NCBI RefSeq assembly: GCF_003334765.1
Contig: NZ_QOWT01000001.1
DNA length: 64,000 nt
Origin: Escherichia coli
GTDB lineage: Bacteria; Pseudomonadota; Gammaproteobacteria; Enterobacterales; Enterobacteriaceae
Direction: 5' to 3' (one strand)
Made by a program: the position numbers and the translations under genes
In this document: piece by piece, positions 41,124-43,120 of the stretch
Layout: each line of letters begins with the position of its first letter
Position numbering within the stretch: the first letter of the stretch is position 1
The notes under the pieces: model-generated
Told to the model about the DNA's origin: nothing
What the model saw: the letters and a program-made list of their open reading frames with translations, nothing else
The model's database searches: none

Positions 41124-41222
41124 AGGTTCTACTTAGCAAAGGTGCTTTAAAAAGTGAAGCGATGTTGTGTCAGCATCCGTTCATTATTGTTGTAACAACG
41201 ACAATTCCTTTCTGTGGAAAAA

Positions 41223-41579
41223 TTAACAAAGCCGCTCCAGATCGTGTGCATATAATTCAGCAGCTACCGATTGATAGATCTTCCAGTCAATAAAATTGCC
41301 ATCAGGGTAGACTCGTTGAAATGCGGTTAAGTCGGGGAAAAAACGCATGGTGTTGTTGCCGATGCGGTTATTTATTTTCTCTATGATGGCATGAAGATGT
41401 TTTTTTCTTTGCTGACGCATAGCCAACAGTTGCTCGACTACACGATCAGGAATGGCACACTTGCCATTTTCCCACTGACGCCAGCTTTCACTGTCACCGG
41501 TCTGGGCAATCCAGGTCGCGCATTCATCAATAGTCATGGCAAAAATATGGCGGAGTGCCTGGAGTTCATAAGCGTTCAT
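41223..41579 (-). CDS. ydiL: Uncharacterised protein YdiL
   Basis: ORF track 41223..41606; start at ATG 41579 (MNAYELQALRHIF...), 118 aa. Confidence 0.8.
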   Translation of the reverse strand: MNAYELQALRHIFAMTIDECATWIAQTGDSESWRQWENGKCAIPDRVVEQLLAMRQQRKKHLHAIIEKINNRIGNNTMRFFPDLTAFQRVYPDGNFIDWKIYQSVAAELYAHDLERLC

Positions 41580-41716
41580 CGTGTAATGGCTGCATGAAAT
41601 AAACAATAAAATATAAATAACATTATCAGCCTGCTGACGGCTTGAAGAGAGTCACAGTATCTTGTGCAACATTATTGGAAAGAGTGAGGGGCGAGGTAGC
41701 GAAGCGGAAAAATGTT

Positions 41717-41822
41717 AAAAAAAAGCCCATCGTGGGAGATGGGCAAAGACTACACACAGCAATTCGTTGTTTCACTCAGGGGATTTCCATGCTTATAAAT
41801 CAATATGTTGATTTATAACCGT
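41717..41822 (-). ncRNA. rprA: RprA small regulatory RNA (RpoS translational activator)
   Basis: Reverse complement reads ACGGTTATAAATCAACATATTGATTTATAAGCATGGAAATCCCCTGAGTGAAACAACGAATTGCTGTGTGTAGTCTTTGCCCATCTCCCACGATGGGCTTTTTTTT, recognised as RprA including its terminator. Confidence 0.9.
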
Positions 41823-41875
41823 GAGCTAATAGTAGGCATACGGACTTTTTGCGTCGATCAGATTCGTCTCATTAG
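41823..41875 (-). promoter_or_regulatory. rprA promoter region (RcsB-dependent in K-12)
   Basis: Position immediately upstream of the rprA 5' end; -10-like tactat on minus strand. Confidence 0.5.
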
Positions 41876-42007
41876 TTTAAAAACTGTAAAGAATTTGCGA
41901 CAGGTACTACCAGCTGAATGGCGGTAAGCAGGAAAATATGGGGAAGAGCAAGCAAATATCAATTAGCGGTGGTTAACAATCAGGCGGCAGAGCCGCCTGA
42001 TGAGAAA

Positions 42008-43120
42008 TTACTTATTCGGTTTCTCGATTTCGCCAAGTTCTTCGAGAATTTCTTCCGGTTGGTCCGTCGGCGGCGGGACTTCTTCCACCCACGCGGCAAA
42101 CAGACGCCAGGAAACGGCTAACAGAACCGGACCAATAAACAGACCGATCATCCCGAAAGCAATCAAACCACCAATAACGCCAGAGAGAATCAGGATCAGC
42201 GGTAAATCGGCACCCATGCGAATTAACATTGGGCGGATGACGTTATCCAGCGTGCCAACCACACCGCTCCACACTAACAATACCGTTCCCCAGGTGGTAT
42301 CGCCAGTCCAGTAGAGCCAGATAATCGCCGGAATCAGTACCGGCAACGGGCCAAGCTGGACAAGGCAGGAGAGGATCATTAACACCGTTAGCAACGTTGC
42401 ATAAGGTACGCCGGATACGGCGAGGCCGATACCGCCAAGCACTGCCTGTACTAACGCCGTCACCACCACACCCAGCGCCACCGCGCGGATAGCCTGTGCC
42501 GCCAGCAGCACGGCGGCATCTCCGCGAACGCCTGCCAGACGGGTTGCAAAATGGCGAATGCCTTGTGCCACCTGTTCACCGCGCCAGTACAGCAGGGCAC
42601 TGAAGAGAAGCATCAGCGCACAATGCACCATAAAGCGCCCGATATGCGCCGCCTGCCCAACGAACCAGGTGGTGGTGGTGCCAATATAAGGGCGGACTTT
42701 CGCCATGATCGCCGTCCCCCCCATATCCAGCAAGTTGTGCCAGCCTGCATACAGCTTCGCGCCAATCACCGGAATGGTATTAAGCCACGCCAGATCGGGT
42801 AACGTCATGTCACCGCTGGAAATGGCTTTAATTAGCGGGCCGCTGCCGTCGACGATACTGTTAACCAGCAAAGCAATAGGGATGATAAACACCATCACTA
42901 ATAACAGCGTCATCACCAGAACGGCGAGAGAGCGGCGGCCAAACATGATCTTTTGCAAACGTAACAATACCGGCCAGGTGGCGATAACCACCGTACCGGC
43001 CCATGCAAAGCCGAGAATAAAGGGTTGAACAATCCACAGACATGCCACAATCATGATGGCTAAAAACAGCACCGAAAGCAGAATTTGTGCGACATCCCTG
43101 GGCTGACGAACATTTACCAT
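42008..43120 (-). CDS. ydiK: AI-2E/UPF0118-family membrane transporter
   Basis: 370-aa polytopic ORF; SD AGGTGA upstream of ATG. Confidence 0.9.
   Translation of the reverse strand: MVNVRQPRDVAQILLSVLFLAIMIVACLWIVQPFILGFAWAGTVVIATWPVLLRLQKIMFGRRSLAVLVMTLLLVMVFIIPIALLVNSIVDGSGPLIKAISSGDMTLPDLAWLNTIPVIGAKLYAGWHNLLDMGGTAIMAKVRPYIGTTTTWFVGQAAHIGRFMVHCALMLLFSALLYWRGEQVAQGIRHFATRLAGVRGDAAVLLAAQAIRAVALGVVVTALVQAVLGGIGLAVSGVPYATLLTVLMILSCLVQLGPLPVLIPAIIWLYWTGDTTWGTVLLVWSGVVGTLDNVIRPMLIRMGADLPLILILSGVIGGLIAFGMIGLFIGPVLLAVSWRLFAAWVEEVPPPTDQPEEILEELGEIEKPNK

Follow-up and report, generated by a model that had tools for sequence, protein, structure and literature searches.

The small RNA gene rprA in the ydiK-ydiL interval of a K-12-like Escherichia coli chromosome

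The element on the minus strand at positions 41717..41822 of a 64,000-nucleotide stretch of Escherichia coli DNA (the whole of which is referred to here as the window) is almost certainly the chromosomal rprA gene of a K-12-like E. coli, that is, a free-standing unit for an RcsB-driven, Hfq-dependent and trans-acting small RNA (sRNA) that works by the published mechanism. Its minus-strand sequence, ACGGTTATAAATCAACATATTGATTTATAAGCATGGAAATCCCCTGAGTGAAACAACGAATTGCTGTGTGTAGTCTTTGCCCATCTCCCACGATGGGCTTTTTTTT, is identical at 106 of 106 positions to the ncRNA rprA of E. coli K-12 MG1655 (b4431, 1770372..1770477), and the MG1655 106-mer has one exact match in the window, at 41717..41822 (-), with both ends agreeing base for base. 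When the whole window was scanned against Rfam 15 at gathering thresholds, four matches were obtained, of which RprA (RF00034) was the best, with 118.5 bits (gathering score 70), an E-value of 1.6e-16 and an untruncated alignment of model positions 1-108 of 108 at 41822-41715 (-). The initial annotation had proposed a minus-strand match to RprA over about 105 nt and had named alignment to the Rfam model as a check; the match is borne out and the alignment passes. Furthermore, the 23-nt RprA core occurs once in the window with an expectation of 0.00 even allowing three mismatches, so that the match lies far beyond chance.

The surroundings of the gene are equally close to the reference. The 4501 bases around rprA are 100% identical to MG1655, and the 64-kb window as a whole aligns to MG1655 1748194-1812193 (reversed) with 99.96% identity, 15 mismatches and one 9-bp gap, the latter lying near window position 53299 (about MG1655 1758895), at the sufE/ldtE end. 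The window copy of rprA thus departs from the reference nowhere. The gene was described in 2001-2002, has its own Rfam family and is annotated routinely; rprA as found here is already known and ordinary, and it adds nothing new to biology. The features of the locus, in window coordinates, are as follows.

41717..41822, minus strand: rprA, a 106-nt small regulatory RNA gene with +1 at 41822 and the 3' end at 41717 (from the MG1655 identity and RF00034)
41858..41871, minus strand: RcsB box TGAGACGAATCTGA at -49..-36, an exact match to TN(G/A)GAN4TC(T/C)NA
41829..41857, minus strand: core promoter with the -35 hexamer TCGACG (41857..41852), a 17-bp spacer and the -10 hexamer TACTAT (41834..41829, -12..-7), read relative to +1
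41793..41818, minus strand: 5' stem-loop, RprA nt 5-30, an 11-bp AU-rich hairpin UUAUAAAUCAA-CAUA-UUGAUUUAUAA in the minimum-free-energy and centroid folds
41760..41791, minus strand: central pairing region, RprA nt 32-63, defined by complementarity to the rpoS leader and covering the published narP and csgD site II regions
41742..41764, minus strand: 23-nt core AAUUGCUGUGUGUAGUCUUUGCC, RprA nt 59-81, which holds the seed against csgD site I and the first part of the terminator stem (exact-match search, duplex)
41717..41763, minus strand: processed short form, the last 47 nt, RprA nt 60-106 (placed from the literature only)
41717..41744, minus strand: intrinsic terminator with stem GCCCAUC/GAUGGGC, loop UCCCAC and U8 (terminator scan)
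41980..42000, minus strand: 9-bp GC-rich hairpin TCAGGCGGC-TCT-GCCGCCTGA, which begins 8 nt past the ydiK stop (read from the sequence)
42008..43120, minus strand: ydiK, AI-2E family transporter, 370 aa, the upstream neighbour (ORF list and annotation of identical DNA)
41223..41579, minus strand: ydiL, DUF1870, 118 aa, the downstream neighbour (annotation of identical DNA)

On the strand that it shares with both neighbours, the gene is separated from the ydiK stop by 185 nt and from the ydiL start by 137 nt, and its site between these two genes, as first proposed, is confirmed by the ORF list and by the annotation of identical DNA. Within the species, the 106-nt sequence is present in 5424 of 5426 complete E. 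coli genomes, with at least 99% identity in 5422 records. The earlier expectation that an ORF-based annotation would miss such a feature holds insofar as the element is non-coding, but not as regards its being missed, as current RefSeq/PGAP labels rprA in the E. coli records listed. Some E. coli carry an IS1 element between the rprA terminator and ydiL with rprA itself intact, for example strain F829 (NZ_OY754443.1; locus L004, 980-1677).

Beyond E. coli, homologues were collected through exact matches to the 23-nt core (AATTGCTGTGTGTAGTCTTTGCC), with each species represented by one genome; the core was found in at least 120 stretches of genomes across the Enterobacterales, including Escherichia, Salmonella, Citrobacter, Enterobacter, Klebsiella, Pantoea, Erwinia, Dickeya and Pectobacterium, as well as Serratia, Yersinia, Rahnella, Hafnia, Providencia, Moellerella and others. 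Since the loci were retrieved by exact match, the core is necessarily invariant in their alignment, and the real evidence for its conservation is the breadth of taxa that carry an exact copy. Of the 109 loci with enough flanking sequence among the matches listed, 107 have a ydiK homologue immediately upstream in the same orientation, and the other two are promoterless partial copies of rprA. The gene ydiL, by contrast, follows rprA in only 8 of 106 loci among the matches listed, mostly from Citrobacter, with Escherichia albertii and Intestinirhabdus in addition. The conserved address of the gene is therefore "after ydiK", and the ydiK-rprA pair is a conserved unit, whereas ydiL as the gene on the other side is a feature of Escherichia and its near relatives alone. 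A length variant was observed in Pectobacterium sp. CFBP8739, where rprA (locus L104, about 10814-10923) contains a 14-nt tandem duplication in which GAGTTAGTAACGAA occurs twice; the duplication ends within the first two bases of the core and would lengthen the central pairing region.

The promoter region of the window copy carries the box expected for RcsB. The RcsB homodimer box consensus was defined by Huesa et al., and the Salmonella rprA promoter 23-mer that was co-crystallised with RcsB contains the same 14-nt box as the window (PMC7913699). This box, at -49..-36, directly abuts the -35 hexamer. The consensus pattern has four matches in the window against 2.3 expected and is not enriched, so that the meaning of the box rests on its position and on its conservation in homologues. 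The latter is considerable: a box was found at the equivalent distance in 106 of 112 homologous loci among the matches listed, from other Enterobacterales, compared to 0 of 112 control regions, when a box was counted if it started 85-125 nt upstream of the conserved core and a same-sized region downstream served as the control. The commonest start among the matches listed is -107 or -108 from the core, as in the window.

The -35 and -10 hexamers each agree with the consensus at 4 of 6 positions (8 of 12 together), and the rprA promoter falls below the threshold of the consensus promoter scan and was not called. Such weak hexamers beside an RcsB box fit a promoter that would depend on an activator. 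The same scan made two promoter calls at 41962-41933, upstream of the RcsB box, which are no more than chance predicts and were set aside. Induction of rprA by the Rcs phosphorelay via RcsB is documented (PMC3465796, PMC6298664, PMC7913699), and phosphorylated RcsB, the output of this envelope-stress phosphorelay, would bind the box and turn rprA transcription on. The gene has the layout of a free-standing transcription unit, with a weak sigma-70-type promoter abutted by the RcsB box at one end and a strong intrinsic terminator at the other.

The same arrangement bears on the reading that the RNA has no gene of its own and is a fragment of the ydiK mRNA 3'UTR, made by read-through from ydiK and subsequent processing. 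The constant presence of ydiK directly upstream on the same strand (the 107 of 109 loci among the matches listed) would suit this reading, as would the hairpin that follows the ydiK stop, which lacks a T run and was not called by the terminator scan. However, the RcsB box and the -35 and -10 hexamers are correctly spaced from the mapped 5' end, with the box retained in 106 of 112 loci among the matches listed, and rprA transcription is described as strictly RcsB-dependent, the RNA being undetectable without RcsB (PMC6298664). In addition, the RNA is separated from the ydiK stop by a 185-nt gap that contains the 9-bp GC-rich hairpin, and this hairpin, judged by its sequence, probably marks the end of the ydiK transcript. 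An origin in the ydiK 3'UTR is thus very unlikely, and an independent, RcsB-driven rprA gene is the preferred reading.

At the 3' end of the gene, the terminator consists of a 7-bp stem and a 6-nt loop at 41744..41725, followed by eight T to position 41717. The terminator stem and U8 tail put forward in the initial annotation are accordingly present, as GCCCATC-TCCCAC-GATGGGC and then exactly eight T, and in a terminator scan of 41200-42300 this was the only terminator-like site. The 106-nt RNA as a whole folds with -25.8 kcal/mol (z-score -2.5; 2 of 200 shuffles equal this value) into a 5' hairpin, a loosely structured middle and the terminator hairpin. The long 5' hairpin is the form depicted in published work, where it is the largest of three stem-loops and has been proposed as the duplex seen on RNase E in a co-crystal (PMC6202311).

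This fold was compared with an alignment of 109 distinct homologues among the matches listed, aligned without reference to structure. When the minimum-free-energy structure is laid on the alignment, 88% of cells are paired, versus 35-41% after a shift of the 3' partners by 1-3 columns; 15 base pairs show changes on both sides, and the observed covariation was reached by none of 500 shuffles. In the 5' hairpin, 78-81% of cells are paired and 10 of the 12 pairs show both-side changes. The terminator stem is paired in 99.6% of cells and shows compensatory changes in three of its seven pairs; four of the stem pairs lie outside the search pattern, and it is three of those four that show the compensatory changes. 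The small middle helix lies inside the 23-nt core, which is invariant in the alignment, and is hence uninformative for covariation. Taken together, the 5' hairpin and the terminator hairpin are supported by compensatory changes across the 109 Enterobacterales homologues among the matches listed. Within alignment columns 12-49, helix 1 of the RF00034 consensus (4 bp, nt 2-5 with 19-22) is paired in 67% of cells and shows fewer compensatory changes than the long hairpin at nt 5-30, and the RF00034 consensus structure may therefore be suboptimal at helix 1 compared to this hairpin.

A strong terminator upstream of a co-directional gene could also be read as a regulated stop, making the element a cis-acting leader or attenuator for ydiL. 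The gene ydiL does begin 137 nt past the terminator on the same strand, and the promoter scan found no promoter-like site between rprA and ydiL. Against this, ydiL is the downstream gene in just 8 of 106 loci among the matches listed, whereas the RNA, promoter box and terminator are kept order-wide, and IS1 separates rprA from ydiL in some E. coli. The terminator is strong (7 bp and U8), and no alternative, anti-terminating pairing was seen in the fold. Action in trans on rpoS, csgD, narP and hdeD has moreover been established by compensatory mutations (PMC3465796, PMC9262595, PMC5861431). A leader function for ydiL is consequently extremely improbable compared to that of a trans-acting sRNA.

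That the locus encodes a small protein, instead of or besides a regulatory RNA, has a vanishingly small probability: a sense-strand ORF of 49 codons (GTG at 41775 to 41626) and a 4-codon AUG ORF from RprA nt 33 can be found, but the former, the sole sense ORF of at least 40 aa, starts at nt 48, meets no stop before the 106-nt RNA ends and continues past the terminator, which means that the RNA cannot express it, the homologues vary by 1-2-nt indels with substitutions that keep base pairs and not codons, and other chance ORFs of 40-67 codons overlap the intergenic region on both strands, all of which upholds the earlier description of the feature as non-coding.

As a trans-acting sRNA, RprA would act together with Hfq by base-pairing with several mRNAs. 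Evidence from Northern blots exists for RprA in K-12 (PMC3465796, PMC9262595), its binding by Hfq has been studied biochemically (PMC3708529) and the RNA has been called Hfq-dependent (PMC9262595); transcription, Hfq binding and processing are taken for the present strain from work on K-12 and Salmonella. Candidate Hfq features in the sequence are the terminator hairpin with its U8 and a U-rich stretch, UAGUCUUU, preceding the terminator, and we infer that the U8 tail and this stretch may together form the Hfq-binding module.

For rpoS, the MG1655 leader from -200 to +30 was scanned against RprA nt 32-78 with a 30-nt sliding window. The best duplex joins leader positions -118..-93 with RprA nt 32-63 at -23.1 kcal/mol, an energy equalled by 30 of 200 shuffled RprA cores, so that only the position of the site is informative. 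This position falls in the leader region where the rpoS-activating sRNAs pair. A whole-length RNAduplex calculation of RprA against the rpoS leader was rejected, as it returned a structure across both RNAs with huge loops and without meaning. In the published mechanism, RprA at about nt 32-63 would pair with the upstream arm of the inhibitory rpoS leader hairpin, freeing the ribosome-binding site and raising RpoS synthesis (anti-antisense).

The computed region overlaps with known sites of repression. Published pairing regions of RprA comprise nt 31-69 for narP and nt 28-45 for csgD site II (PMC3465796, PMC9262595), and compensatory mutations have demonstrated that RprA uses the central region to repress narP and hdeD (PMC9262595, PMC5861431). 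Targets of repression by RprA also include dgcM/ydaM and, via sites I and II, csgD (PMC3465796). The best duplex with the csgD 5'UTR joins -120..-83 with RprA nt 59-98; it has an energy of -37.4 kcal/mol and contains 15 consecutive pairs. The published csgD site I, validated by mutation, comprises -119..-84 with RprA nt 60-97 (PMC3465796). The computed duplex thus coincides with the published site, which shows that the core found order-wide is the anti-csgD seed. By pairing with the csgD 5'UTR through nt 28-45 and nt 60-97, RprA would lower CsgD, and pairing with dgcM (ydaM), hdeD and narP would lower their products; together, the lowered CsgD and the lowered dgcM, hdeD and narP products would tie envelope stress to less curli and biofilm.

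RprA also occurs in a shorter form. The processed RNA has been given as RprA60-105 (PMC3465796) and as the "last 47 nts" (PMC9262595). An RNase E site that releases a shorter RprA form has been described (PMC6202311), and the short 3' form keeps some activity (PMC3465796, PMC6202311, PMC9262595). Cleavage by RNase E would accordingly leave about 47 nt from the 3' end, in which the conserved core, the terminator and part of the activity are retained. A further account by Papenfort et al. from 2015 (PNAS) reportedly deals with ricI and the processed RprA form.

The core is unchanged from Providencia and Yersinia to Escherichia (at least 120 stretches). Apart from the known csgD/dgcM pairing, Hfq binding and termination, the processed 47-nt form may have some further partner or role whose conservation accounts for this, a possibility that we consider rather unlikely. 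The processed form does have an effect on the narP 5' end without an identified direct partner (PMC9262595).

Partial copies of the 3' segment were encountered in a few genomes. In Phytobacter massiliensis (NZ_HE578945.1), the full rprA after ydiK is followed, at a distance of about 8.1 kb, by a promoterless duplicate of just its 3' ~70 nt, the copies being at about 815-920 of locus L050 and about 1205-1284 of the contiguous locus L051. The segment between them encodes a tape-measure-like ORF (phrog_24, E 3.9e-15) and a Ner-like repressor (phrog_769, E 6.8e-30), and no integrase was seen there among ORFs of at least 90 aa. The arrangement resembles a decayed prophage or island for which the 3' part of rprA served as the attachment site. 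Orphan 3' copies were also seen in a Citrobacter metagenome-assembled genome (locus L097, with a full copy on L098) and in E. coli CH468, on the 89-kb record H37 (nt 60-106, 95.7%). A search of 50,697 phage records (INPHARED) gave no match to the RprA sequence, and none of these phages has it as an attachment site. Neither the invariance of the core nor the 3' duplications mark anything unusual in the window copy.

The other three Rfam matches in the window are as follows. The sRNA rydB (RF00118, 81.6 bits) matches at 47426-47486 (+), and MG1655 b4430 maps to 47414-47481. The RcsB-box pattern occurs here as TGAGATTATTCTTA at 47410-47423, on the annotated rydB start; this is probably a coincidence, since 2.3 matches are expected by chance and the pattern overlaps the start instead of lying upstream of a -35 hexamer. 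STnc540 (RF02082, 67.4 bits, gathering score 38) matches at 16883-17041 (+), spanning the 3' end of ihfA (CDS 16642-16941) and the ihfA-btuC spacer, including a hairpin AAAAAGGCCGC...GCGGCCTTTTTT. The MG1655 annotation table has no RNA feature at this place, and the match is possibly an sRNA derived from the ihfA 3'UTR. Finally, Phe_leader (RF01859, 75 bits) at 12918-13042 (+) is the pheM leader/attenuator of the pheST-ihfA operon, as expected in this K-12 region.

The 428-bp gap between ydiK and ydiL is thus not empty and holds a stress-responsive regulator that ties the Rcs envelope-stress system to RpoS, to the control of curli and biofilm and to nitrate-response regulation. For the window itself, rprA matters only as a correct annotation.

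Compared to known systems, the window copy is alike RprA (RF00034; b4431) in sequence, in the full-length match to the model, in its position after ydiK, in the RcsB-box promoter, in the stem-loops and terminator, in the complementarity to csgD site I and in the position of the best rpoS-leader duplex. The sRNAs DsrA and ArcZ resemble RprA in that they are Hfq-dependent and open the rpoS leader hairpin at the same upstream arm by the anti-antisense mechanism (PMC3465796, PMC3937726). Their genes, however, are unrelated to rprA, are found at other loci and answer to other signals, whereas RprA is driven by RcsB. The signal is low temperature for DsrA and aerobic growth, via ArcA/ArcB, for ArcZ. 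The effect of RprA on RpoS is comparatively weak, with csgD and dgcM being stronger targets (PMC3465796). Like RprA, OmrA/OmrB and other csgD-targeting sRNAs repress csgD via its long 5'UTR, but OmrA/B bind to the long stem-loop of csgD, whereas RprA binds to the non-overlapping sites I and II, which include the translation initiation region (PMC3465796).
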